NCBI GenBank assembly: GCA_027459705.1
Contig: DAIDHM010000072.1
Location: 1 to 56,082 of the forward strand
DNA length: 56,082 nt
Direction: 5' to 3'
Source of the DNA: Ktedonobacteria bacterium
Lineage (GTDB): Bacteria > Chloroflexota > Ktedonobacteria > Ktedonobacterales > JACDGC01
Part shown: positions 3,475-51,551 of the stretch, one piece after another
Position numbering within the stretch: the stretch's first letter is position 1
Layout of the letters: the number at the start of each line of letters is the position of its first letter
The notes under the pieces: model-generated
Seen by the model: the letters and a program-made list of their open reading frames with translations, nothing else
The model's database searches: none
What the model was told of the DNA's origin: nothing
Position numbers and translations under genes: made by a program

Positions 3475-6400
3475 ATGCCGCGGATGGTGACAGACCGGGC
3501 GAACGTATTGGGACCAGTATCCATCTTGGTCAGTACGGAGTTGCAGCGCAAATTGAAGGCTGCCCTATCGCCGCTGGCACCTGATCTGGCTGGGATGTTA
3601 GCGGTACTGAACACGCAGCGTGGTGTCCCCGTTCTGGTGGAAGAGGTCGTCCAGCATCACCCACATTTCCTCTTTGGCGCTGGCCCACTCTGTCTGGTAG
3701 CGCAACCCGCTGGGGAAGCGGCATCTTTCACCACAACTGAGTTGCGTCCTCTGAAATTGCCCGAACAGCACCGCTTCGCCCGCGAGGCCCTCTGGGTCCA
3801 TGCTGCGGACTGGCAGATCGCGGATCCACGCGAAGCACTCCCGCTCCGCGAGGCCCAGAAGGCCGTCACCACGCTCCTCGAGATGTGGCGGCAGGCGTCG
3901 GCACCGGATCGGAACCGATCTACCCAGCACCCTGGCCACCAGGCGACGGCAATCCCCCCTATCGCGACACATGAGCGGTATCTGGAACGCCTCGATGGGT
4001 TAATCTCACTCTCGCGTCGTCTGGAACAAGATCGACTTCTGGAGACAGTAGGTGGCGCATCATTCGCATATCTGACGGCGGAGCCCGAACCCGAGCTACA
4101 TCGCTGGCTCTTGATCTGCGCGCCAGAGGCCCCACGTCCGAGGATCCGCGATCGAGTGCGCTTGCGTGATGCCCCAACCTTGCGTGGGGTGATCGTTGGT
4201 CAAACACGCCAGGGGGTAATCGTTGAATTTTCCGCAGGTCAGGCCCTGACCGTCGCAGACATCCCCACACCAGGTTGGCTGGAATTATTACCCTCCGTCG
4301 CCCAGTTCAACATACAACGCGAGGCAGTGGCGACCCTCCGCGCTGGCGGGTCCAGTAATCCACATCTGCTGGACATTTTTGTCGATCATCGCTATCAGCC
4401 ACTGCGGAAAGCACATAAAGGCGCAGATTCACCGGTCGATCTCGATCCAGACCAACTTGCCGCCTGGAAGGCGGCTCAGACGATTCCCGATGCATTGCTC
4501 GTTCTGGGTCCACCAGGCACCGGCAAAACGCATACGATCGCCCATATCACCAGCACGATGGCGGCGCGCGGGCAACGCATCTTGATAACCGCGCGCACGC
4601 ATCGCGCGGTCGATAACGCCCTTGAACGACTGAGCGCAATACCTGGGCTGAGGATTATCCGCGCGGGCCAGAGCGACCGCGTGGCTCCAGGTTTGCGCCA
4701 TCTCTTATTAGACGCCCAGACTCACGCGACCCGCGCGACAATTCTGGAGCGCGTGGACGAATCATTACGTCGCATGTCGCAGGCATTGGCTCATCTGGAG
4801 GCCGCCAAGCCGGTCGCGACAGCAGATGACTCAGACGCCGAGGTCGCCACCATCGCCGCGCGCATTCGTTCAACCGAGGTCGCGCTCCTGGCGGCACAAA
4901 CAGAGATAGATCGTCGCTATGGCATTCCCCAGCGTTTGTGGGAGACAGAGCTGGCGGACGAAATCGATCACCTTCGGACTACCGATGCCGCGCTCGCGGA
5001 TCTCGCGGCTCTCCAGGCCGATCTCCATGCGCGCCGCGCACGACCCTTCATCGGGCTCTGGTGGGCCATTGCCGAGGCACGAGTGGCACGACGCCTGCGG
5101 CGCGATCAGCAACGACGATCGCGGCACTCGCAGGCGTTGCTCGACCGCGCTCAGGAATATTTTGCCGTGCGCGCGCAACATGCGGCGGCATTACAACATC
5201 CCGATCTGGCTGAGTTCGCTCAGTCACTGGCAGATGATCGTGCGCTGTTAGCGCAACGTACGGGCGATCAACGATCCTGGTTGGGTGACATGGATGCTGT
5301 GCTGGCTCCGATTAGCAGCGACCGACCGGAATGGGATCCTGCGCGCGGTGGCGATATCCGAACCTATCAGGTCTGGGCGCATGATCTCATCCCCGTGTTG
5401 CGTCAGCGTCTGGCCATCATGCGGACATGGCGGAGCGCGGTGGCGGAGGATGCCGATACCCTGGTGCCGTTGCTGATCGAGAACGCTGATGTCGTCGGCG
5501 CGACCTGTATTGGCATCGCCACGACTCGCGATCTCCCAGATGAAGAATTCGATCTGGTGATTGCCGATGAAGCCGGCCAGATTGGGCTGGTGGATCTGTT
5601 GGTACCGCTCGTGCGGGCACGCCGCGCGATCCTGGTCGGCGACCATCAACAATTGCCGCCCTTCGTCGCAGATGAGATCCAACAATGGCTCACCGAGCAC
5701 ACTGGTGTGATTGCGGATGATCTCTTACGGGCCGTTGGCGATCTGCTCACCAAGAGCGCCTTTGAATTGCTGTTTCCGCGCGCTGAACCCAACCACCGCG
5801 TCTTGCTGACCCAGCAGAAACGCATGCCGCGGGTCATCGCCGATTTTCTCGCGACGCAATTCTATGGCAATCAGTTGCGATCGCCAATCGAAACAGATCC
5901 ACCAGCGACCTCTCCAGTATTAGCAGCGCCGCTGACGCTGGTCGATACCAGCGATCGTCCGCGGCCTGCCCGCGCCGAGAGTGTTGTGGGTGGTCAGGAT
6001 GCCAGCGATGCGCATGGGTATCGCAATGAGATCGAAGCTGCGTTGGTGGCCGATCTCGTCGACGCTTATGCCGGTCGCAAACTGGATTGGGTAGTCATCA
6101 CTCCCTATCAGGCACAGGCCGAGCGGGTGCGCGAACTCCTGCGGCAACGACTGCCAAACCTTTCCCTGGCGGAACTCCTCGAACGCGTGGCGACCGTCGA
6201 TTCCTTCCAGGGTGGCGAACGTGATTACGTCTTCTTCAGTTTCACGCGCTCCAATGCCAACGGCAATGTCGGGTTCCTGCGTGAACTGCGGCGGTTGAAT
6301 GTGACGATGTCGCGCTCCCGGCGGCAATTGATCTTAGTCGGTGATTTCCCTGGTCTCTGTGCGGCCAATGACGCAGGTTTTCAGCGTTTGGCGCGCGCGT

Positions 6401-11264: not shown

Positions 11265-11685
11265 AGATCCTCATCTGTTCAGTCTCCCGCTCCATCGCCA
11301 CCCGGCGCGGTTGGTCTCCTCTGATACCGACAACCTCATTTGGTCATGTATGTAATACAGCGGATAACCCGACTACGGGCAATTGCTACCTCGTCCGGCA
11401 CCGCCCATTCACTGTTAGCCAAGTCATGGTAAGTGATTCCCGCGCGGGAATCATACTGCTTTTTGCATGACTTTGCAAGTGGTAAGTACTAGCTGGCTCT
11501 GTACATCAGCGTGTGCACCACCAACCGCAGCGCGAAACGTAGGTGATCAATCGACGGTTTCGATCAATCCATTATTGCATACGTATGCGAGAACGTTTAG
11601 TTCCCAAGCGGGCCGTTCCGCGAAAGTGCGGTTTGATCTCTCCACCATGGGATTTCCCCATCGATCACAACGAAATGATGGCGAT

Positions 11686-11720
11686 GAGCGCCACACATCT
11701 TTACGATGTACGTGGCGCTC
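11686..11720 (-). terminator. Hairpin (GAGCGCCAC / GTGGCGCTC, 17-nt loop) 40 nt downstream of the VWA gene stop; candidate operon terminator
   Basis: 9-bp inverted repeat. Moderately U-rich 3' flank on the minus strand. Confidence 0.3.
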
Positions 11721-11760
11721 GCCACCATCTCTCAGACTCTCTCAGGTACTTTGCAGCGCT

Positions 11761-14115: not shown

Positions 14116-15525
14116 TCAGCGGTCGCGCCGGTAGCGGAAAGCCCCTTCACTGGTGTCTTTATTCAAGCGCTTCTTCAGATGCAGACCTTCCAGGATGAAT
14201 TCCACGGCGGATGCCACCGAAGCCGGGCTCCCATGACCTTTGAGCTTCGTGACCGCCGCCTCAAGTCCGCCAACTCGCGAGAGCTGCGTGACATATTCCA
14301 TCGACGGCTGCATATCAGCGGCGTGCACATTCATGCCTCGCTCGAAACCCGCGACCAATTGATCGAACTCCGGCTGATCGAAATAGCGATCGAAGACAAT
14401 GACGATCGACTGGTTGATGAGTTTCTGGATAATCTTATCTTCGCGCGCATCACCCAGGGTATCCATCTCAATCTTGCCAGCTGTGCTGGAGATGACCGCT
14501 GGCAGATCGCTCACGCGTGGCACTGCCGTGCGCTCCTTGAGCCGCAGAGCACGTCGAATCGCGTTGCTGGCGACATTCTCATAATTGGTGATTGAGATTC
14601 GGACACTGACCCCGGAACGCTGGCTGATGTCCGAACTCTTGCGCGCCTGATGTGTGATCTGGGCGATGATCTCTTTCATGAAGCGCGGATAGACCAGCTC
14701 AACACCATCAACGACTTGAGGCGCCGCCTCGGCTTCCATGATCGCGATCTCCTGATCGATCGCTTTGGGATAATGCGTGCGAATCTCCGAACCGATGCGG
14801 TCTTTCAACGGTGTAATGATACGACCGCGATTGGTGTAGTCTTCCGGGTTGGCGCTGGCGACAACAAAGACATCGATCGGCAGTCGGATTTTATACCCGC
14901 GGATCTGCACATCGCGCTCTTCCATGATGTTCAGGAGTCCGACCTGAATGCGCTCTGCCAGGTCAGGCAACTCATTCAGACAGAAGATACCGCGATGTGT
15001 CCGTGGCACCATGCCATAATGGATGGTCAATTCATCAGAGAGATAGCGTCCCTCAGCGACTTTGATGGGGTCCACCTCGCCGATCAGATCAGCGATGGTG
15101 ATATCGGGTGTGGCCAACTTCTCGCCATAGCGGCGATCCCGTGGAAGCCACGCAATCTCCACTTCATCGCCCTGCTCCGCGACTTTGGCACGGCAAGCGG
15201 CGCAGATCGGATGTAACGGATCATCATTGATCTCGCAGCCAGCGATCATGGGAATCTCTGGGTCCAGTAATTGCACCAGGCTACGCGCGATGCGGGTCTT
15301 CGCCTGGCCGCGCTCTCCCAGGAGAACGATATCTTGCCCGGAGAGGATGGCGTTTTCGATCTGCGGTATGACAGTCTCCTCATAGCCAACGACGCCAGGA
15401 AAGAGCTCCTGGCCGTCGCGGACGAGGCGTACGAGATTAGCGCGCATCTCTTCTTTGACAGTGCGCGACTGGTAGCCGCTCGCCCGTAAGGCACCAATAG
15501 TACGCGGTTGCGTGCTGGTTGCCAT
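14116..15525 (-). CDS. AAA+ ATPase, Mg-chelatase ChlI/BchI-like (MoxR-related)
   Basis: 'FPGVVGYEETVIPQIENAILSGQDIVLLGERGQAKT' parallels the ChlI N-terminus and Walker A. Walker B 'IFCLNELPD', sensor-1 'VVASANPEDY', Arg-finger region 'PLKDRIGSEI'. Confidence 0.75.
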   Translation of the reverse strand: MATSTQPRTIGALRASGYQSRTVKEEMRANLVRLVRDGQELFPGVVGYEETVIPQIENAILSGQDIVLLGERGQAKTRIARSLVQLLDPEIPMIAGCEINDDPLHPICAACRAKVAEQGDEVEIAWLPRDRRYGEKLATPDITIADLIGEVDPIKVAEGRYLSDELTIHYGMVPRTHRGIFCLNELPDLAERIQVGLLNIMEERDVQIRGYKIRLPIDVFVVASANPEDYTNRGRIITPLKDRIGSEIRTHYPKAIDQEIAIMEAEAAPQVVDGVELVYPRFMKEIIAQITHQARKSSDISQRSGVSVRISITNYENVASNAIRRALRLKERTAVPRVSDLPAVISSTAGKIEMDTLGDAREDKIIQKLINQSIVIVFDRYFDQPEFDQLVAGFERGMNVHAADMQPSMEYVTQLSRVGGLEAAVTKLKGHGSPASVASAVEFILEGLHLKKRLNKDTSEGAFRYRRDR

Positions 15526-21269: not shown

Positions 21270-21794
21270 ATGTCCTTGCCCAATGAAGGGCCAACAATAC
21301 CCACACCACAGGAAGCGGACCATCCGGCCACAACCCCACCATTTTTTGAATCCGCCAGCGTCGTCTCAGCCCTGAAATGGGGGGTGATTGTGGGCGTTGC
21401 TTATTTTGTCCTCGCCTATCTGGTCGCTTTGCTCAGCAATGTGATCGTCGGATTTGGCAACAATCCGACACAGAATCCCAGTCTGGTGATCCCCGCCTGC
21501 CTGGGTCTGTTCGTGATCGTCTTCGCCCTCTATGTCGCAGGCTATTTACCAGCCATGGAGCGCGGACAGATCGGGCCAGGTTTGCTGAGCACATTGGTTA
21601 TGCTGGCGATCTCGAATATTCTGGGAAAATTCATCAACCCCGCAGGCAAGGCGATCGTGGGAGGCGCTGGCTCTTTAACGGTACAGATCGTTTCCTTCTT
21701 CGTCTCTGTCGCGCTCGCCGTGGGGATTGGCTACCTTGGCGCATTCTATGGCGTAAAGCGCAATGCGCGTACGACAAATTCGAAGACTGCCTGA
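21270..21794 (+). CDS. Small 4-TM membrane protein, unknown function
   Basis: Hydropathy pattern. SD-like 'GGGAGG' sits 7 nt upstream of the ATG. Confidence 0.45.
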   Translation: MSLPNEGPTIPTPQEADHPATTPPFFESASVVSALKWGVIVGVAYFVLAYLVALLSNVIVGFGNNPTQNPSLVIPACLGLFVIVFALYVAGYLPAMERGQIGPGLLSTLVMLAISNILGKFINPAGKAIVGGAGSLTVQIVSFFVSVALAVGIGYLGAFYGVKRNARTTNSKTA

Positions 21795-22001
21795 ACCGCC
21801 CGTACCCACCATTTACCCAATTTCAGGCGAAAGTTTGCTGGAGCGTAGCCTCAGGTTGGGAGTCGTACCAACGGAGGGCACTGAGTGAACTCTGGCGAGT
21901 GTCCCTCTGTCTCCCTCCGTCGACAACGATCCTACCAACTGCACCCGCCTGGGGAAAGGTGCTGGTGGGAAAGGCGCGGTCAGATCGCGAGGTCAATGCT
22001 C

Positions 22002-22877
22002 TCATTCGGTCAGATCCAGCGTGCGGAGATACGCTTTGAGGGCGGGAGCCAGATCCGGACGGCGGAGGGTAAAATCAATGCTCGTTGTGAGCCAGCCCAC
22101 CGTATCACCAGTATCATAGCGCTGACCGTTAAATTCCAGCCCGTAGATCGTCTCGAACTGCAACAACATCGCCAGGGCATCGGTCAACTGGATCTCGCCG
22201 CCCTTGCCGGGTGGTGTCTTTTCGAGGAGACTGAAGATGCGTGGGGAGAGAATATAGCGTCCTACGACCGCCAGATTCGATGGCGCCTCATGCACCGGAG
22301 GCTTCTCCACCAGGCCCCGCACCCGGAACAGGTGAGGTTCCAGTTGCTCGCCAGCAATGACCCCATAGCGCGAGACCTCCTGTGGGAGCACACGCATCGT
22401 GCTGATCACCGATGCTTGCAACTGTTCCGCTCGCGCGACCAACTGGCCCAGGCAGTTAGGACCGGCGGGGCTATACATGACATCATCGCCCAGTAAGACG
22501 GCGAACGGCTCGGTATCGCCGATGATGGCGCGCGCCATCAAGATTGCATGCCCCAGACCGCGAGGCTGAGATTGGCGAACGTAGCTGAAGCGCGCCAAGG
22601 ATTCAATGTGGCGCAGACGTTCCAACATACGCGTGTTATTTTTGGCTTCAAGGGTGCGGGTCAACTCTGGGTTCTCATCAAAATAATCCTCGATAGCACG
22701 CATATGGCGATTGGTAATTAGGATAATATGATCAATTCCCGCCGCTACTGCTTCTTCCACAACATATTGCAGGGTCGGCAAATCGGCCACCGGTAATAAT
22801 GGTTTGGGCACGGCTTTTGTTGCGGGCAATACGCGGGTTCCCCACCCCGCCACCGGTATTACTGCTTTTCGAATCAC
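22002..22877 (-). CDS. galU: UTP--glucose-1-phosphate uridylyltransferase
   Basis: 'KAVIPVAGWGTRVLPATKAVPKPLLPV...YVVEEAVAAGI' and 'VEKP' are GalU signature motifs. Confidence 0.9.
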   Translation of the reverse strand: MIRKAVIPVAGWGTRVLPATKAVPKPLLPVADLPTLQYVVEEAVAAGIDHIILITNRHMRAIEDYFDENPELTRTLEAKNNTRMLERLRHIESLARFSYVRQSQPRGLGHAILMARAIIGDTEPFAVLLGDDVMYSPAGPNCLGQLVARAEQLQASVISTMRVLPQEVSRYGVIAGEQLEPHLFRVRGLVEKPPVHEAPSNLAVVGRYILSPRIFSLLEKTPPGKGGEIQLTDALAMLLQFETIYGLEFNGQRYDTGDTVGWLTTSIDFTLRRPDLAPALKAYLRTLDLTE

Positions 22878-43500: not shown

Positions 43501-43518
43501 GATCCCGTCATTCGGCTT

Positions 43519-43591
<73 letters not shown>

Positions 43592-43823
43592 CCCCACATT
43601 TGCGCGCCAGACCAACCTCGTCCCCCTCCCCATCGCAAACATCAAAACAATGTGTAGCCGTGTGCGTGGTGTATAATCGCTTTCCTCCCATCTCATTCAA
43701 TCTCCACCAGTCAAGGTTGTGCACTCGACCTGTTGCTGTGCTAGGATACACATAACTCATGACCGCACCGCAAGGCGGACACCATGGGCTGCAACGAGTG
43801 CTGTTGGGAGGATACAAGACCGC

Positions 43824-45326
43824 ATGACCCCTGAACATGTTGATGTCCTGATTGTCGGGGCGGGAATCTCAGGCATTGCCGCTGCGTACTACATTCAGCA
43901 AATATTCACCGCGCAGCGGCACCTGAACCTCCGGACGTACGCCATCATCGAAGCACGCGATGCCATTGGGGGCACATGGGATTTATTCCACTATCCGGGG
44001 ATCCGGTCTGACTCTGATATGCACACACTGGGTTACGCGTTTTATCCCTGGCAAAATCCGAAAGCGATCGCTGATGGCCCGGCAATCTGCGCGTATGTAC
44101 GCGAAACCGCCGCGCACTTCAGCATCGATAGGCATATCCACTTCCATCACCGACTGCGTCGCGCCGCGTGGGACAGCGATAAAGCGCGCTGGGAGGTGAT
44201 CGTCGAGGTTGGGCCAGCGGCGACGCCGACCATAATCACCTGTGGTTTCCTCTACATGTGCACAGGCTACTATGACTATGACCAGGGCTATACGCCGCAA
44301 TGGCCGGGAGTCGAGCAATTTCAGGGAACCATCATCCACCCCCAACAATGGCCGGAGCAGCTAGACTACACTGGCAAACGCGTCGTGGTCATCGGCAGTG
44401 GCGCGACGGCGGTCACGATCGTCCCCGCGATGGCCGATCAGGCAGCACACGTGACCATGCTGCAGCGTTCACCAACGTACATCGTCTCACGCCCATCCGA
44501 AGATCGCTCCGCCAAATGGTTACAGAGTCACTTCCCAGCGTCCATCGCGCATGGTCTGACGCGGTGGAAGAACATCCTGTCGGGCATGTATACTTACGCT
44601 CTGGCGCGCAGCCGCCCGGCACTGGTGCGCACGGCGATTGTCAAGATGGTGCGCACCGAACTAGGCCCCACCTATGATGTCGCGAAAGATTTCTCTCCGA
44701 CCTATAACCCTTGGGACCAACGCGTCTGTCTGGTACCGGATTCGGATCTCTTTCAAGCGATGAAAGCTGGTAAGGCGTCGGTGGTCACCGATCAGATCGA
44801 GACCTTTACCGCGACTGGATTGCGTCTGGTGTCTGGCAAGGAGTTGCCAGCCGATATCATAATCACCGCGACCGGCCTCACGATGCGCCTTATGAGCGGA
44901 GTCGAATTGACTGTGGATGGTCGGCATGTTGATCTCGGTACATCGCTAACCTATAAAGGGCTCATGATCAGCGATGTACCGAATCTGGCGGCGAGTTTTG
45001 GCTATACCAACGCTTCGTGGACGTTAAAATGCGAACTGATCGCTCGTTATGTCGCCCGGTTGTTACGCTATATGGACCGCCATGGTTATGATGTATGTCT
45101 CCCCGCGCGTCCGGCCGGAGTGGTCGGCACACGGCCCGCGATCGACTTCACCTCGGGCTACGTGCAGCGCGCGGTAGCAACTTTGCCACGACAGGGTCAG
45201 AAGCGTCCCTGGCGGACCTATCAAAACTATGTCCGTGACCTGTTCATGATGCGCTATAACCGCGTAAGTGATGGGACGCTACGCTTCATGCGACGGCAAA
45301 ATTATCAGTCATCAACCATCCGCTAA
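43824..45326 (+). CDS. Flavin-containing monooxygenase (FMO/Baeyer-Villiger type, FAD/NADPH-dependent)
   Basis: FAD 'VLIVGAGISG', NADPH 'VVVIGSGATA', FMO-identifying 'FQGTIIHPQQW' (FxGxxxHxxxW). Start at ATG 43824, with 'GGGAGGA' upstream. Confidence 0.85.
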   Translation: MTPEHVDVLIVGAGISGIAAAYYIQQIFTAQRHLNLRTYAIIEARDAIGGTWDLFHYPGIRSDSDMHTLGYAFYPWQNPKAIADGPAICAYVRETAAHFSIDRHIHFHHRLRRAAWDSDKARWEVIVEVGPAATPTIITCGFLYMCTGYYDYDQGYTPQWPGVEQFQGTIIHPQQWPEQLDYTGKRVVVIGSGATAVTIVPAMADQAAHVTMLQRSPTYIVSRPSEDRSAKWLQSHFPASIAHGLTRWKNILSGMYTYALARSRPALVRTAIVKMVRTELGPTYDVAKDFSPTYNPWDQRVCLVPDSDLFQAMKAGKASVVTDQIETFTATGLRLVSGKELPADIIITATGLTMRLMSGVELTVDGRHVDLGTSLTYKGLMISDVPNLAASFGYTNASWTLKCELIARYVARLLRYMDRHGYDVCLPARPAGVVGTRPAIDFTSGYVQRAVATLPRQGQKRPWRTYQNYVRDLFMMRYNRVSDGTLRFMRRQNYQSSTIR

Positions 45327-45436
45327 TTCAGCAATTGCAACATACTGTACTGTAGATATCGCTACGATGCACTTTGTTACGGCGCAGCGCAGCACTGAAA
45401 CATTCAGTGGGTGAGAGGGCAAAGGATGAAATTAGG

Positions 45437-46606
45437 ATGCGATTACTATTAGACGATTCAACCGAACCAGTCATCTACACGATTCAGGATGGGGCCATCT
45501 ATGCTCTGGACGCTCAAACAGGCGAATTACACTGGTCTGGTGATCGTGTAGGGTGGGACGCGTTGGTCGGATGCGCCAGCGCATCCATTGTCGTCCGACA
45601 ATCCTTTCAGTATCTGGCGGGCCTTGCAGCCGCAGATGGTACTGTGTTGTGGTCTGTCGAGGGCAACGCCGGCTATCAGATGGATGTGACGTCAGATGAT
45701 GTAGTGCTGGCACGTGGGGGATCGTATCAACAGCAGGGTTATATGGAAGCATTCGATGCACAGAATGGTACCCTGCTCTGGCGGCACGTATGGCCCAGCA
45801 CGCCTTTTGATGAAGCTCGTGACCAGGATGAAGATCGTCCAGTCTGGCATGGAGACACCTGTTACTATGTGGAACATGGGGATACGCTCGTTGCGATCGT
45901 TACAAGAACAGGAGAGGTGCGCTGGCGCTACCACCATCCCGCCGCGTTCACTGTTGACCCAGCAGTTGATGACGACTTCGTTATTATTGGAACAGCGGAC
46001 GAGTTCGTCCTTGCTTTTGCTGCGATAAATGGAGAGCTAACATGGCGATTCCCGATGGGTTTCGCTCATCCACCGACCACGCGTCCCCGTATCGGTTCGG
46101 GTCGCGTTCTGGTGGGTGCGGAACGCGTCGTGGTTGCTTTGGACGCACAAACCGGTCAGAGTCTCTGGCATGTGATCCCCGGAAAAGATCTGGATACGGA
46201 TGAACCTGTGTTTAACACCTTGAACGAATTTTTGGAGATCACCCCCGACCTTAGCTATATCGCATACCTGGCTTTTTCGGGCGACCCACATAGTGGAGGC
46301 GATCCTGATCTGTATTGTGAGGTCAGCGCATATGATGCAGTTGGACAACGCATCTGGCGCCATGTCAGCAGTCAGATCCTGTTCATGGGCAGAAGTCATG
46401 ATCGGTGCTATCTGTGGTTTGCGGAATATGATCGGGGTGAGGTGTGGGCCCTGTCGCCGACAGGACAGATCATCCAGACTGTACGATTACCTAGTTCTGC
46501 GTCTGTCTTAGTGTCGGAATCTGCTCTATTCGTGGCGTCAAGCGGGAACCTCATCGCTTATTCCTCGGATTTAACGGCACCATTGTGGCACACGCCAATC
46601 AGATAG
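45437..46606 (+). CDS. PQQ-like beta-propeller repeat protein
   Basis: Repeated 'AxDAxTGxxLW' units ('ALDAQTGELHW', 'AFDAQNGTLLW', 'ALDAQTGQSLW'). No signal peptide seen. Confidence 0.7.
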   Translation: MRLLLDDSTEPVIYTIQDGAIYALDAQTGELHWSGDRVGWDALVGCASASIVVRQSFQYLAGLAAADGTVLWSVEGNAGYQMDVTSDDVVLARGGSYQQQGYMEAFDAQNGTLLWRHVWPSTPFDEARDQDEDRPVWHGDTCYYVEHGDTLVAIVTRTGEVRWRYHHPAAFTVDPAVDDDFVIIGTADEFVLAFAAINGELTWRFPMGFAHPPTTRPRIGSGRVLVGAERVVVALDAQTGQSLWHVIPGKDLDTDEPVFNTLNEFLEITPDLSYIAYLAFSGDPHSGGDPDLYCEVSAYDAVGQRIWRHVSSQILFMGRSHDRCYLWFAEYDRGEVWALSPTGQIIQTVRLPSSASVLVSESALFVASSGNLIAYSSDLTAPLWHTPIR

Positions 46607-46672
46607 AAATTAAGGCTCTAGCCGCGCAAACCGCCATCCCATGAGGGTGAGCACCCAGGGCCTTTAGCCCTG

Positions 46673-46739
46673 GCATTAGCTGTCGAGACAGAAGGCTATT
46701 CGGCGTCAGAAGTTGCTGCCATCTGCAACGCGGCTGCTT
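46673..46739 (+). repeat. Direct repeat copy 1: 67-bp truncated duplicate of the 3' coding end of the downstream AAA+ gene
   Basis: 65/67 identical to 49705-49771. Translates to 'ALAVETEGYSASEVAAICNAAA*', against 'ALAVETEGYSAAEVAAICNAAAFRAA...' in the intact gene. Confidence 0.85.
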
Positions 46740-47193
46740 GATCATATCCGAAGTAATCTGTATTTTGCACAAGGTTGACTAGTAGTTGAAACGGAAAGGA
46801 TCGACCTTAAAAGTGGGTGGGTTGAACGGGATAAGCACGCTTCCAAGAAGGGTTCGGCACTAATCTGTTCGGTGGCTTGGGCCTGGAGCACCTGATTCAC
46901 CACAGTTTGCAGCACACTAGCCAAGGCAACTTCTTGTGTCAACTGGGATTGCAACTGCTCGGTTTCTTCGTTCAGATGAATCGTGGGCGGGCTTCTACTC
47001 CTACTTGGCGTTGTTCATTGCTACGAGCCTAGCAGTAGAGGCATCCCCATCTTGCGCAAATTACAGAACTTCTCGGACTCTATTTATGTATATTGCTATG
47101 AGAGTAAAATCAACTAGATCCGATCATAAATGTGTTGTATATTGTTCTTGGAGAAGTACTCCCAGGTTCTTTTTGTGTATTGGAGGTTGTGCC

Positions 47194-49920
47194 ATGATGA
47201 TCTCATTACAACAGCGATTGGCTACTGTCAGACAACGCATTGCTGCATTGCCCCCCCTTGAACCTACCAGGTATAGCCCGTATTTCCGAGGGGTAACGGC
47301 AATCGCTGCGGCAGCGTTTGTTTGGTATGTATTAAGATTGCTGCCCTATTATCCACTTGGGTGGCAAGCTTTACTCATGATCCTGGTGCTTGTCATCTGG
47401 TTTGTACGCCCTGTCACAGGGGAGCGCGTAGCGTTAACCGCTTTTATTTTGCCGGTGGCCTATAGCTTCCCTTACGGAGGACTGGGCTTAGCAATTGCAG
47501 TGGGAACCTTCTGGATCGCCTGGCTTCTGCCCCCATCTGGATTTCTCTGGATAGCCCTTGCCGTTCTCATTTATGCTTTTCCACCCCTTCTTCCCTTCAT
47601 TTTTGTGGTCCCACTCGCCCTGGCATTCGAAGGGCCTTCACAAGGAGGCTTCCTTGCTGGTCTTACCGCCTTTTTCCTAGAAATCTTGATGCTCATTGGT
47701 GGGCGGACTCATAGCACGATCTTAAGTGGGGGCAAATTGCTGGCACCATTGATTCATGTTCAGGCTAAGCCGATTGACTCGCTTATTGACTGGAAATGGC
47801 TACAGATCCTGGGTGATCCAAATTTGCGCGTACTTGGGTTTCTTGGCCGCATATTTATTCCATTTGTAGAAGATCCATTGTTGTTGGGACAGATTATTCT
47901 CTGGAGTGGTAGCACGGCTCTCGTCGCGATAATTCTGCGTAAGCCCTTTACAACCAGACTCCCGCGCAATGTACAGGCATTGGTGAGTGGCATGCTCTGC
48001 CTCTCGATTGGTCAGGTCACCCTAGCATCATTACTTGCCGAGAGTGGAGCGGATATCGGAACTATTGCGAGTACTGCGCTGATATCAGGGGTCATCGTCT
48101 TGATCTTCGCTCCAATTCTTGAAGTTGGAACGGTCGCACTGCATTCGCAAGGTCATTTTACATCTGCGACGGCATTGAATGCGAGTGAACAACATGCTCC
48201 CACGAGTACCAAGAGGACTGAATCAAAAGAGACTATCGCTGCACGTGAGATCCCAAATGATCAATGGAGTGATTTGGCTGGTATAGATGATATCAAGGAC
48301 GAACTCCAAGATGCCATTCACTCGCAATTCGATGAACGAACTCGCCAGATTCAAAAACGGATGGGAATACCTCCTATTCGAGGTATCCTGCTCTATGGAC
48401 CACCAGGGACAGGGAAAACCAAAATTGCTCGGGTCATCGCTCATGAAGCAAACGCGACATTCTATGCAGTGAGTGGTACGGAATTCACCAGTAAGTGGTT
48501 TGGTGAATCGGAAGCGAATTTGCGGCGCATCTTTGAAGAAGCACGTGCGCATCGCCCGGCAGTTCTGTTCTTCGATGAACTTGAGGCATTTTTACCACTT
48601 CGCAAAGACATGGCGCGATCTGACGCACCAGAGAAAGGGATTATCTCCACCTTCTTGGCCTATACTGATGGGGTCAGCGATATGGAGGGCGTCCTACTCG
48701 TCGCAGCGACGAACTACCCCAACCTCATTGATCCTGCTGCACTGCGTCCGGGACGTTTCGATAAAGTCATCTATATGAGTCCGCCGGATGCGACGCATCG
48801 AATCGCGATTTTGACACGATATCTCGCGCACCGCCCATTGGCTGAAGATGTTGATCTCGTAAAGCTCAGCGCGCGGATGGAACGCTTCACGGGCGCAGAT
48901 ATCGAACGTGTCTGTATTGAAGCATCGCGGCGTGCTTATGAACGCACCAAAGAGGGGAAATCAGAGACGTTGACCATGGAGGATCTCGAAATTGCTCTGG
49001 GGGGAACGAGACCATCGGTGACTATCCCGATGCTGCGCGAATATGAAGCATTAGCCGATCAATACGGAAGACGTTCGTCCAGGCCTGGCCATATCGATGT
49101 GATCGATCGTCCGGATTATCATTGGTATGACGTCGCAGGCCTTGATGAGGTGAAACGCGTATTACGCGAGGCAATCGAATTGCCGCTGGCGCATCCTGAG
49201 CTTTTTGCTCAGTATCGCGTGAGGCCACACAAGGGTGTTCTACTTTTTGGCCCTCCAGGCTGCGGCAAAACTTTCCTGGCCAAAGTTGTAGCAAGTGAGG
49301 CACATGCGAGCTTCTTACATGTACGTGGCCCCGAATTGTTGGAACGGTTTGTCGGAGCTTCTGAGGGGCAATTACGGAACCTGTTCATTCGGGCCCGCGA
49401 AAATGTTCCTTGCGTCCTTTTTTTTGACGAGCTCGACGCAATCGCGACTATCCGTGGTAGTAATGATAGTTCTCATACACAGATATTGACACAGTTCCTG
49501 ACGGAGATGGATGGGGTCGAGGAATTGAAAGGCGTGGTTGTCGTAGGGGCAACAAACCGGCCCGACGCCATTGATCCAGCCTTGTTACGTCCAGGCCGAT
49601 TTGATCGCATCCTGTACATTCCGCCGCCGGATCTTGCTGCGCGAGTAGCTTTGCTGAAACTTGAACTGGGCCAACGGCCTATCGCTGATGATCTTGATGT
49701 CGACGCATTAGCTGTCGAGACAGAAGGCTATTCGGCGGCAGAAGTTGCTGCCATCTGCAACGCGGCGGCTTTTCGAGCCGCGACAGATTCGCTCCTTGCG
49801 GGTGAGTCGCAACGCATCTCAATGACGATGCTCCGCGAACAAATTCAGCAAACTCCGAAATCCCTTACTGATGAGGTAATTGCACAATATCGCGAATTGC
49901 GGCAACGGATGCAGCGTTGA
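47194..49920 (+). CDS. Polytopic-membrane-anchored tandem AAA+ ATPase (CDC48/VAT-like D1+D2 modules); compositionally atypical
   Basis: N-terminal ~370 aa with about 8-10 TM helices. D1 has Walker A 'LLYGPPGTGKTKIA' and Walker B 'LFFDELEAF'. D2 has Walker A 'VLLFGPPGCGKTFLA' and Walker B 'LFFDELDAI', plus SRH 'ATNRPDAIDPALLRPGRFDR'. ATG 47194 has SD 'GGAGG' 7 nt upstream. GC is visibly lower (~50%) than in neighbouring genes. Confidence 0.85.
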   Translation: MMISLQQRLATVRQRIAALPPLEPTRYSPYFRGVTAIAAAAFVWYVLRLLPYYPLGWQALLMILVLVIWFVRPVTGERVALTAFILPVAYSFPYGGLGLAIAVGTFWIAWLLPPSGFLWIALAVLIYAFPPLLPFIFVVPLALAFEGPSQGGFLAGLTAFFLEILMLIGGRTHSTILSGGKLLAPLIHVQAKPIDSLIDWKWLQILGDPNLRVLGFLGRIFIPFVEDPLLLGQIILWSGSTALVAIILRKPFTTRLPRNVQALVSGMLCLSIGQVTLASLLAESGADIGTIASTALISGVIVLIFAPILEVGTVALHSQGHFTSATALNASEQHAPTSTKRTESKETIAAREIPNDQWSDLAGIDDIKDELQDAIHSQFDERTRQIQKRMGIPPIRGILLYGPPGTGKTKIARVIAHEANATFYAVSGTEFTSKWFGESEANLRRIFEEARAHRPAVLFFDELEAFLPLRKDMARSDAPEKGIISTFLAYTDGVSDMEGVLLVAATNYPNLIDPAALRPGRFDKVIYMSPPDATHRIAILTRYLAHRPLAEDVDLVKLSARMERFTGADIERVCIEASRRAYERTKEGKSETLTMEDLEIALGGTRPSVTIPMLREYEALADQYGRRSSRPGHIDVIDRPDYHWYDVAGLDEVKRVLREAIELPLAHPELFAQYRVRPHKGVLLFGPPGCGKTFLAKVVASEAHASFLHVRGPELLERFVGASEGQLRNLFIRARENVPCVLFFDELDAIATIRGSNDSSHTQILTQFLTEMDGVEELKGVVVVGATNRPDAIDPALLRPGRFDRILYIPPPDLAARVALLKLELGQRPIADDLDVDALAVETEGYSAAEVAAICNAAAFRAATDSLLAGESQRISMTMLREQIQQTPKSLTDEVIAQYRELRQRMQR
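49705..49771 (+). repeat. Direct repeat copy 2 (inside the AAA+ gene 3' end)
   Basis: See copy 1. Two T/G mismatches. Confidence 0.85.
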
Positions 49921-49971
49921 TGTTGGATAAGTGGGGGACGAGGATTCGAGCGGCTCATCCGTCACCTATCC

Positions 49972-50751
49972 TCACTCCCCCAGATAGGCTGCGCGAACCG
50001 CCGGACTATGCAAGAGTTCGTTTGCTGATCCCTGAATGACAATGCGGCCATTCTCGATGACGTAGCCACGGTGGGCACGTTCCAGCGCGATCTGCACATC
50101 CTGTTCAACCAGCAGGACGCTGAGCTGTTCTCGTTTTTGAATCGTATCGAGCGCGGCCAGGATGTCATCGACGACAATCGGCGCCAGACCAAGTGACAGC
50201 TCATCGATCAGCAACAGCGCTGGGCGGCCCATCAGTCCCCGCCCAATCGCGCACATCTGCTGTTCTCCACCCGACATCAACCCTGCCACTTGCTTACGGC
50301 GCTCGCGCAGTTTGGGAAATAGGGCATAGACGCGATCCAGATCTTCATGGATGCCGCGCTCTGTCCCCGCGCGACGCGTGTAGGCACCAAGCCGCAGGTT
50401 ATCTTCCACCGTCAGCCCAGCGAAGAGGCGGCGACCCTGGGGCACATGGATCAATCCCAGCGCAGCAATATGCTCCGCGCGCGCGCGGGCGATGTCCTGA
50501 CCTTCGAAGGTCACCTGACCACCCCAGGCAGGCAGCAAACCCGAGAGAGCCGTGAGCAACGTGGATTTTCCGGCACCGTTCGCGCCCACCATCGCCACCA
50601 CCTCGCCGCGCCGCACTTCCATCCCGACATCCCAGAGTACCTGAGTATCTCCATAACCGACATCCAGGTGCGCGACATACAGTAACAGGTCGCTCTCAGT
50701 CGTCGATGTGGACCCCGTGACACCCGCGCTCATGCCAACCCCTCCATCCAC
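49972..50751 (-). CDS. livF: Branched-chain amino acid ABC transporter ATP-binding protein LivF-type (second operon)
   Basis: 'GANGAGKSTLL', 'MSGGEQQM', 'LLLIDELS'. Confidence 0.9.
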   Translation of the reverse strand: MDGGVGMSAGVTGSTSTTESDLLLYVAHLDVGYGDTQVLWDVGMEVRRGEVVAMVGANGAGKSTLLTALSGLLPAWGGQVTFEGQDIARARAEHIAALGLIHVPQGRRLFAGLTVEDNLRLGAYTRRAGTERGIHEDLDRVYALFPKLRERRKQVAGLMSGGEQQMCAIGRGLMGRPALLLIDELSLGLAPIVVDDILAALDTIQKREQLSVLLVEQDVQIALERAHRGYVIENGRIVIQGSANELLHSPAVRAAYLGE

Positions 50752-51551
50752 TCGCTCGCCGGTTGTGCCGGATCTTTTTCAGCTTGTTTTTGTTTGGCAT
50801 AGCGTTCACCAAGATACGCCTCGATCACCTTGGGATCACTCAGTACGGTATCCGGTGTATCCTCGGCGATTTTGCGGCCATGATGCAGCACCAGCACGCG
50901 ATCCGAGACGCTGGCGATAGCGCGAACAATATGCTCAACCACCAATACCGTCACGCCGTCGCGGTTGATCGAGCGGATGAGTTCGATGGCATCGGTCACC
51001 TCGGCCGGTGTCAACCCCGCCATCACCTCATCCAGCAGCAAGATCCGTGGATCCATTGCCAGCGCGCGGGCTACCTCGAGTCGTTTGCGATCAGCCACGG
51101 TCAACTGATCACCCTTCAGCGTGGCTTTATGCGCCAGACCGACCCGTGCCAGCACCTCATCGGCCACATGCAGCGCCTGCGACCGACTGAGGCCACGTCG
51201 CCCAAAGAACGCCCCAACCATCACATTCTCGCGGATGTCCAACCCAGTGAAAGGTTGTGTCAACTGAAAGGTCCGGCCAATGCCCAGGTGCGCGCGGCGA
51301 TGGGGCGGGAGGGTATTGATGGCTTGTCCTTGAAAGAGCACCTTACCAGAGGTCGGCGCCGCTGAGCCACCAATTAAACTCACCATTGTGGATTTACCCG
51401 CGCCATTCGGCCCGATGACGCCCAGCACCTCGCCACGTTGCACTGCGAAACTCACGTCATCCACCGCCGGTAAGCCGCCGTAACGCTTCGTCACATGTTG
51501 CAATTCCAGAATCGTCTCAGATGCCGTTGGCGGCGATAAATTTGCGGACAC
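50730..51551 (-). CDS. livG: Branched-chain amino acid ABC transporter ATP-binding protein LivG-type (second operon)
   Basis: 'GPNGAGKSTMVSLIGG' and LivG-type features. Start proposed at GTG 51551, with 'GGAGGGGG' upstream, overlapping the livM end. Confidence 0.8.
   Translation of the reverse strand: MSANLSPPTASETILELQHVTKRYGGLPAVDDVSFAVQRGEVLGVIGPNGAGKSTMVSLIGGSAAPTSGKVLFQGQAINTLPPHRRAHLGIGRTFQLTQPFTGLDIRENVMVGAFFGRRGLSRSQALHVADEVLARVGLAHKATLKGDQLTVADRKRLEVARALAMDPRILLLDEVMAGLTPAEVTDAIELIRSINRDGVTVLVVEHIVRAIASVSDRVLVLHHGRKIAEDTPDTVLSDPKVIEAYLGERYAKQKQAEKDPAQPASEWMEGLA

Follow-up and report, generated by a model that had tools for sequence, protein, structure and literature searches.

Insertion sequences (IS) of the IS256 family, such as IS256 and ISCth4, encode a Mutator-type DDE transposase, move by a copy-out/paste-in route and measure 1.2-1.6 kb. 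Another kind of trace is left by tyrosine or serine integrases, which generate attL/attR duplications at the 3' ends of tRNA or protein genes. Here we describe a locus that offers a worked example of telling a transposon-junction scar from an att site, the question being whether the edge of a repeat coincides with the tip of a transposon. The locus lies on a 56,082-nucleotide contig (DAIDHM010000072.1, assembly GCA_027459705.1) from a Ktedonobacteria bacterium; this whole stretch is called the window, and all positions refer to it. A 67-bp piece of an AAA+ gene (46673-46739) stands upstream of the intact gene (47194-49920) and is followed by a 345-bp relic of an IS256-family element (46740-47084). 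We consider it likely that the piece is the dead remnant of a second copy of the same AAA+ gene, joined by the IS within codon 860. The feature is a transposon-junction scar, the outcome of ordinary genome decay and a fresh example of a well-known type of debris.

The relic shares with the IS256 family its N-terminal transposase sequence, terminal inverted repeats whose GTCC box is set 6 nt in from the tip, a subterminal TGTAA(A)-like motif, and the way in which the left repeat is spaced and oriented with respect to the start of the transposase. It departs from the family in its length (345 bp against 1.2-1.6 kb), in a transposase of 49 codons that has no start codon, and in not being flanked by a target-site duplication. 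The nearest database sequences are 55-63% identical at the protein level, which makes the element an uncatalogued one. Like the derivatives of IS that resemble miniature inverted-repeat transposable elements, the relic is short, keeps both inverted repeats and has an internally deleted transposase; unlike them, it occurs as a single copy in the 56-kb contig and has no target duplication. The order of the pieces (segment end, IS, segment start) is that of tandem duplications joined by an IS (PMC11253626), although here 67 bp of the upstream copy are left, the IS is gutted and no second flanking IS is present. With attL/attR pairs the locus has in common a short direct repeat that covers some of the 3' portion of a gene, whereas the polarity is wrong, the cargo would be the gene itself, one edge is a transposon tip and an integrase is missing.

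The repeated gene fragment

The direct repeat has one copy at 46673-46739 and another at 49705-49771, and the two agree in 65 of 67 bases. A 33-mer derived from the repeat occurs twice in the window against 0 expected from 100 shuffles, and when the entire spacer was compared with the window in a sensitive blastn search, the 67-bp match (E=1.5e-28) was the only one. The IS relic occurs once in the contig, and blastn detected no further pieces derived from the AAA gene in 46560-47193. The similarity ends abruptly, with none found outside the repeat on either side of either copy. A 7-bp hairpin where the fragment begins on its left does not reach significance (z=-1.35).

Translation of the upstream copy gives ALAVETEGYSASEVAAICNAAA, which equals residues 838-859 of the 908-residue AAA protein and falls in the second AAA domain, within its lid (Pfam AAA_lid_3, E=4e-5, covering profile positions 6-27 out of 45). 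The relic of the second gene copy, non-coding and on the plus strand, thus consists of codons 838-859 and the first base of codon 860, and its source stretch in the intact gene (49705-49771, plus strand) ends within codon Phe860, where 49771/49772 marks the putative IS target in the lost copy. The copies differ by a G-to-T substitution at 46706, which changes Ala to Ser, and by a second one at 46735, which is synonymous. The fragment begins 521 bp and finishes 454 bp upstream of the true start of the AAA gene. The fragment lies within the 3' part of the gene, which goes on for another 49 codons after the repeat. The TGA behind the fragment is a product of the junction, composed of T46739 from the gene and GA from the IS terminus. 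A preliminary description of this DNA had recognized the 67-bp direct repeat and its abrupt ends, which our analysis confirms, and had read the upstream copy as the gene's own 3' end, closed by a stop and lying 520 bp before the start. This reading is correct in that the fragment comes from the 3' part of the gene and from the AAA lid, that a TGA is present and that the distance is about right for the fragment's start; it needs amending in that the fragment is internal, its end lies closer to the gene and the TGA is not the gene's stop.

Between the fragment and the resident gene DNA identity is 97%, whereas the nearest homolog of the gene reaches 54% in protein; the source of the fragment was thus the resident gene or a near-identical copy. 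As an alternative, the preliminary description had proposed that a horizontally acquired xenolog took the place of an ancestral allele, of which the fragment would be what remains. The low GC content at third codon positions (GC3) of the AAA gene and the lack of a close ortholog in related genomes would agree with such a replacement. However, if a native allele had been displaced, it should differ from the present gene at the level of xenologs, whereas the two DNA sequences are 97% identical and the best homolog of the protein reaches 54%; moreover, the source of the fragment has the same GC3 as the resident gene. We regard a displaced allele as very improbable. The divergence of 3% (2/67) between the copies, set against the 11-15% by which the DNA of the nearest related genome differs, makes the event a comparatively recent one.

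Nothing points to a function of the fragment. A functional element could be imagined here, either as an outward antisense RNA that regulates the AAA mRNA or as a micro-ORF (open reading frame), since leftward transcription from the IS end would yield 67 nt complementary to that mRNA, and the right ends of IS256-family elements can bear outward -35 boxes (PMC7780238). Against this, a consensus scan of 46600-47200 found no promoter-like site on either strand and no terminator, the spacer has no Rfam match, and the frame of the fragment contains no start codon. In addition, no equivalent fragment lies upstream of the AAA homologs at the homologous loci examined, and no conservation can be demonstrated. 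We therefore see very little prospect of such a function.

The IS256-family relic

The 587 bp between the stop of the upstream PQQ-propeller gene (46606) and the AAA start form a mosaic, most of which is the 345-bp relic on the minus strand (46740-47084). The relic is recognized by its two terminal inverted repeats, by DNA homology to a metagenomic IS256-family element on a contig designated L087 and by termini in register with multi-copy relatives. It includes a transposase pseudogene remnant (46847-46993, minus strand), for which the minus strand from 46993 to 46847 encodes SPPTIHLNEETEQLQSQLTQEVALASVLQTVVNQVLQAQATEQISAEPF, corresponding to residues 1-49 of a Mutator-type (IS256-family) transposase. 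A word-indexed protein search with the 64-residue remnant returned no match, and an exhaustive HMMER search was needed to place it: phmmer against 1.84 billion representative proteins gave 2 matches, the better of which (P0163, E=1.4e-9) covers residues 2-48 and is encoded on L087, a contig that carries Pfam Transposase_mut (PF00872). Using the IS256-family transposase of Brevibacillus marinus as query, tblastn aligned residues 21-51 at 61% identity, and tblastn against plasmids matched the N-termini of annotated IS256-family transposases. The Pfam profile PF00872 itself gives a weak match to the remnant (profile positions 10-50, E=0.069). The start codon has been lost, the window having CCG where the P0163 gene has ATG; the homology ends after the residues AEP, so that codons 1-49 alone survive and the DDE catalytic core is deleted.

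The reverse complement of the window aligns with L087 at 73% DNA identity from 47084 down to 46850, and identity falls to 31% in the 45 columns beyond 47084 and to 25% beyond 46850. The homology begins at the left-hand terminal inverted repeat (IRL; 47051-47084, minus strand), which reads AATAGA followed by GTCCGAGAAGTTCTGTAATTTGCGCAAG as the reverse complement and aligns with the IRL of L087, AATAGCGTCCGAAAGATGCTGTACTTTAGACAAG. The right-hand repeat (IRR; 46740-46773, plus strand) reads GATCAT followed by ATCCGAAGTAATCTGTATTTTGCACAAG, and its outermost base abuts the gene fragment directly. Between them, 46746-46773 and 47051-47078 form an inverted repeat of 24-28 nt with an alignment score of 27, against 15.5 +/- 2.3 for shuffled sequences; in its narrower extent the repeat pairs 46750-46773 with 47051-47072.

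The exact tips were placed with the help of 80 IS256-family loci from metagenomes, recovered by a peptide-based scan, that have the same N-terminal motif (42-63% identity) and that served for the termini only. Copies of one element were compared across different flanks (L132/L134/L135 and L106/L116/L117), and in both sets the copy-to-copy similarity starts exactly 6 nt outside the GTCC box at both ends. The box lies 6 nt from the tip in 74 of the 80 loci, and the tips of the relic show the same spacing. The right end of the relatives is typically G[AG]TCAA/GTCC, with the decamer G[AG]TCAAGTCC on that strand in 44/80 loci; in the window, the right end reads from 46740 as GATCAT followed by ATCCGAAG, that is, GATCAT/ATCC, and the left end, which finishes at 47084, reads AATAGA/GTCCGAG as the reverse complement. 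Subterminal motifs are present in degenerate form, as TGTAAT at the left end and TGTATT at the right end; the family has a subterminal TGTAAA motif in its terminal inverted repeats (PMC7780238). The relic is made up of ~107 bp of right end and ~238 bp of left end (including the 49 codons), separated by an internal deletion of ~1 kb, and the related elements that we measured are ~1.3-1.6 kb long. When metagenome contigs were searched for exact occurrences of a 20-mer common to the window and L087, no match was returned. Judged by the parts it retains, the relic is a dead, uncatalogued member of the IS256 family and not an active element.

The junction and its proposed history

The last base of the gene fragment, 46739, directly meets the first base of the IS, 46740, and the corresponding point in the intact gene, 49771/49772, falls within codon Phe860. 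IS256-family elements generate 8-bp target duplications (PMC7780238). No target-site duplication of 8-9 bp is found at the relic, whose flanks read GGCTGCTT on the fragment side and TATGTATA on the side of the AAA upstream region; the latter is the AT-rich 5' region of the intact gene (47085-47193, plus strand), which, as read from the sequence, contains a ribosome-binding site. One flank of the IS is thus codon 860 of the AAA gene, and the other is the same gene's own upstream region. Because the flanks share no 8-bp duplication, they derive from different original sites, and we interpret the missing duplication as a sign of rearrangement rather than as an argument against an IS256-family origin.

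The present layout runs from AAA sequence up to 49771, through the IS, to the AAA upstream region and the whole AAA gene. This order, in which the end of a segment is followed by an IS and then by the start of the segment, marks the joint of an IS-mediated head-to-tail duplication, and an IS is established at the joint of head-to-tail duplications that arise by unequal exchange between sister chromosomes (PMC11253626). The events and their order, duplication followed by deletions, can be proposed as follows. An IS would first have been situated upstream of the AAA gene; an IS end, or a second copy of the IS, would then have been joined to AAA codon 860 on a sister molecule, either through unequal exchange between IS copies or through an IS end attacking the sister chromosome. 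The product would have been a truncated AAA gene, the IS and an intact AAA gene in a row. A non-homologous deletion with its left edge at 46672/46673 would later have stripped the upstream copy to its last 67 bp, and the IS would have shed ~1 kb of its transposase gene by internal deletion, together with the start codon. As the upstream copy is reduced to 67 bp, the duplication has to be deduced from the joint alone. Under this history, full-length copies of the IS would be expected to have the tips GATCA(A/T) and AATAGAGTCCG and to be flanked by 8-bp duplications.

Several points weigh against this history. The window, which is the whole contig, contains neither a full tandem duplicate nor a full-length copy of the IS; at least three events are required; and nothing diagnostic marks the fragment on its left side. 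The source may have been a near-identical paralog at another place in the genome instead of the resident gene, and the contig is a short-read metagenome assembly. The last point raises the question of an assembly artefact, in the form of a chimeric path through an IS repeat in the metagenome graph or of a joined strain-variant read, and IS elements are a classic cause of mis-threading in assemblies of this kind. However, mis-threading would explain the right junction and not the left one, where 46672/46673 shares no k-mer with the gene; the 2 differences in 67 bases are not something an assembler invents; and the IS relic occurs once in the contig. An artefact is, in our judgement, quite improbable.

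A further explanation is flank transduction, in which the IS once resided in the AAA gene and moved to the spacer by using a surrogate end 67 bp further out, thereby taking a scrap of the gene with it. The attachment of the fragment to an IS terminus is what this mechanism would produce, and IS256-type elements are known to be imprecise where one end attacks the flank of the other end, with circle spacers of 5-19 bp (PMC7780238). Nonetheless, no 8-9 bp duplication surrounds 46673-47084 (TAGCCCTG versus TATGTATA), and the putative surrogate end, GCATTAGCTGTCGAG, has no GTCC/TGTAA architecture. Furthermore, a copy-out element would have left the donor gene disrupted, whereas the AAA gene is intact, and the unit of 67 bp plus IS is present once in the window. 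We consider this mechanism unlikely, and we prefer the duplication of the AAA gene across an IS joint, followed by decay.

The pieces themselves, the IS family, the nucleotide-precise abutment and the missing target duplication are observations that do not depend on the proposed course of events. They indicate that the spacer upstream of the AAA+ gene is junk, namely a scrap of a gene next to a defunct member of the IS256 family, and that neither the 70-residue minus-strand ORF nor the 994-residue extended ORF of this region merits annotation. They also record past IS activity, probably with a transient duplication, within a small, apparently horizontally acquired two-gene island of an uncultured genome. 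A more far-reaching idea, to which we give a rather low probability, is that a recently acquired AAA+ gene with a membrane anchor was once amplified in tandem by the IS, the junction being a fossil of this amplification, and, still more speculatively, that the 67 nt could be transcribed outward from the IS end as an antisense RNA against the AAA mRNA. If amplification did occur, it would point to a phase of selection for extra dosage of the AAA gene that later collapsed.

The AAA+ gene and the surrounding candidate island

The intact AAA+ gene (47194-49920, plus strand) encodes a protein of 908 residues with an N-terminal polytopic membrane region and two classical, Cdc48-like AAA domains (two Pfam AAA and two AAA_lid_3 matches). 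Its true start is the ATG at 47194, preceded by GGAGG at 47182-47186; the GTG at 46936, which gives the 994-residue ORF, is a mechanical extension only. The protein scores 529 bits against the NCBIfam model TIGR01243 (CDC48 subfamily), below the cut-off of 803, and it has no match to the CDC48_N domain, its N-terminus being the membrane region. These profile scores place it outside the CDC48 family; it represents an unnamed group of membrane-anchored, classical tandem AAA proteins. PADLOC matches to IetA and TRIP13 reflect generic AAA similarity only.

Among 5.8 billion proteins, the best homolog is 54% identical at full length, and partial matches reach a maximum of ~60%; a scan of representative genomes with the AAA protein likewise found no close relative, the best being 54%. 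Full-length matches of 870-980 residues are spread across many phyla. In the four closest genome loci, which belong to Anaerolineae and Chloroflexi metagenome-assembled genomes (MAGs), an Actinomycetota MAG and Candidatus Hakubella, the N-terminal membrane region of ~340 residues (47194-48240 in the window) has 28-34% identity. The homolog in Candidatus Hakubella thermalkaliphila (contig L004) is bracketed by pairs of direct repeats, one of 89 bp and 88% identity (5531-5619 and 11666-11754) and one of 25 bp and 100% identity (5903-5927 and 14398-14422); these are unrelated to the AAA gene sequence and may be dispersed repeat elements. In an Anaerolineae MAG (contig L001), a tandem duplication of 175 bp (170-342 and 350-524, 94% identical) lies ~1 kb upstream of the AAA homolog.

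The AAA gene is part of a candidate lineage-specific island (45298-49971), which comprises an orphan PQQ beta-propeller gene (45437-46606), the junk spacer and the AAA gene, and which is delimited by the contig ends of a relative, by missing orthologs and by GC3. The flanking genes have orthologs with 85-93% DNA identity in GCA_965187545.1, GCA_009712145.1 and one Logan assembly. Contigs of GCA_965187545.1 are ~85-89% identical to the window at the DNA level, and one of them finishes at 45297, 29 nt before the stop of the FMO gene, while another finishes at the livF stop (49974). In L084, one of these two edge contigs (the other being L083), the final 8 nt differ from the window within the 3' end of the FMO gene. 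No contig of a relative spans the gap between FMO and LivF; GCA_965187545.1 is alone in having the flanks, on contigs without terminal overlap, the assemblies of the relatives being fragmented and the Logan contigs of the matching run measuring ~1-4 kb. The coincidence of the relative's contig ends with the edges of the segment may reflect a strain-variable region.

Composition sets both island genes apart, with a GC3 of 0.52 for the PQQ gene (z = -2.1) and 0.48 for the AAA gene (z = -2.7), against a contig mean of ~0.65. The best match of the PQQ/BamB-like protein is 37% identical over 29% of the query, most others being at 25-30%, and neither the PQQ nor the AAA protein has a close ortholog among the 5.8 billion proteins, relatives' assemblies included. 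No direct or inverted repeats above the level of shuffled sequences occur at the island edges. PQQ-propeller genes were not found beside AAA homologs elsewhere, so the two do not form a conserved pair. These features suggest that the region from ~45.3 to 49.97 kb is lineage-specific and probably acquired DNA, in agreement with the earlier view of the AAA+ gene as atypical.

Both copies of the 67-bp repeat lie within the island, and hence the repeat does not delimit it, contrary to the preliminary description, in which the repeats marked the boundaries of an insertion. The same evidence bears on the idea that they are attL and attR of an element integrated at the gene's 3' end. The repeat does take in the 3' part of a gene, in a compositionally atypical region with a tRNA-Phe gene 3 kb upstream. 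However, the DNA between the repeats consists of the IS relic and the first 837 codons of the gene and contains no integrase; the partial copy stands upstream of the gene and not downstream of a reconstituted one; its right edge is a transposon terminus; and the repeats do not coincide with the island edges suggested by the relative's contigs. An att-like origin is therefore hardly credible. What stands of the earlier proposal of a recombination or integration scar is the rearrangement, with a mobile element targeting the 3' part of the AAA gene, and not site-specific integration of the att type.

Other features of the contig can be noted separately. The tRNA-Phe gene (GAA anticodon; 43518-43594) precedes the left edge of the candidate island by 1.7 kb, and the arrangement of this tRNA and the FMO gene is common to the window and the relative, which shows that nothing integrated at the tRNA itself. 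The ORF at 21377-22039 has the lowest GC3 of the contig (0.48, z=-2.8) and overlaps other ORFs; it may be a spurious ORF or a further insert of atypical composition. Finally, the adjacent livF-like and livG-like ABC ATPase genes share a 57-nt repeat (50561-50617 and 51388-51444, 72% identity), which represents ordinary paralog similarity near nucleotide-binding motifs.

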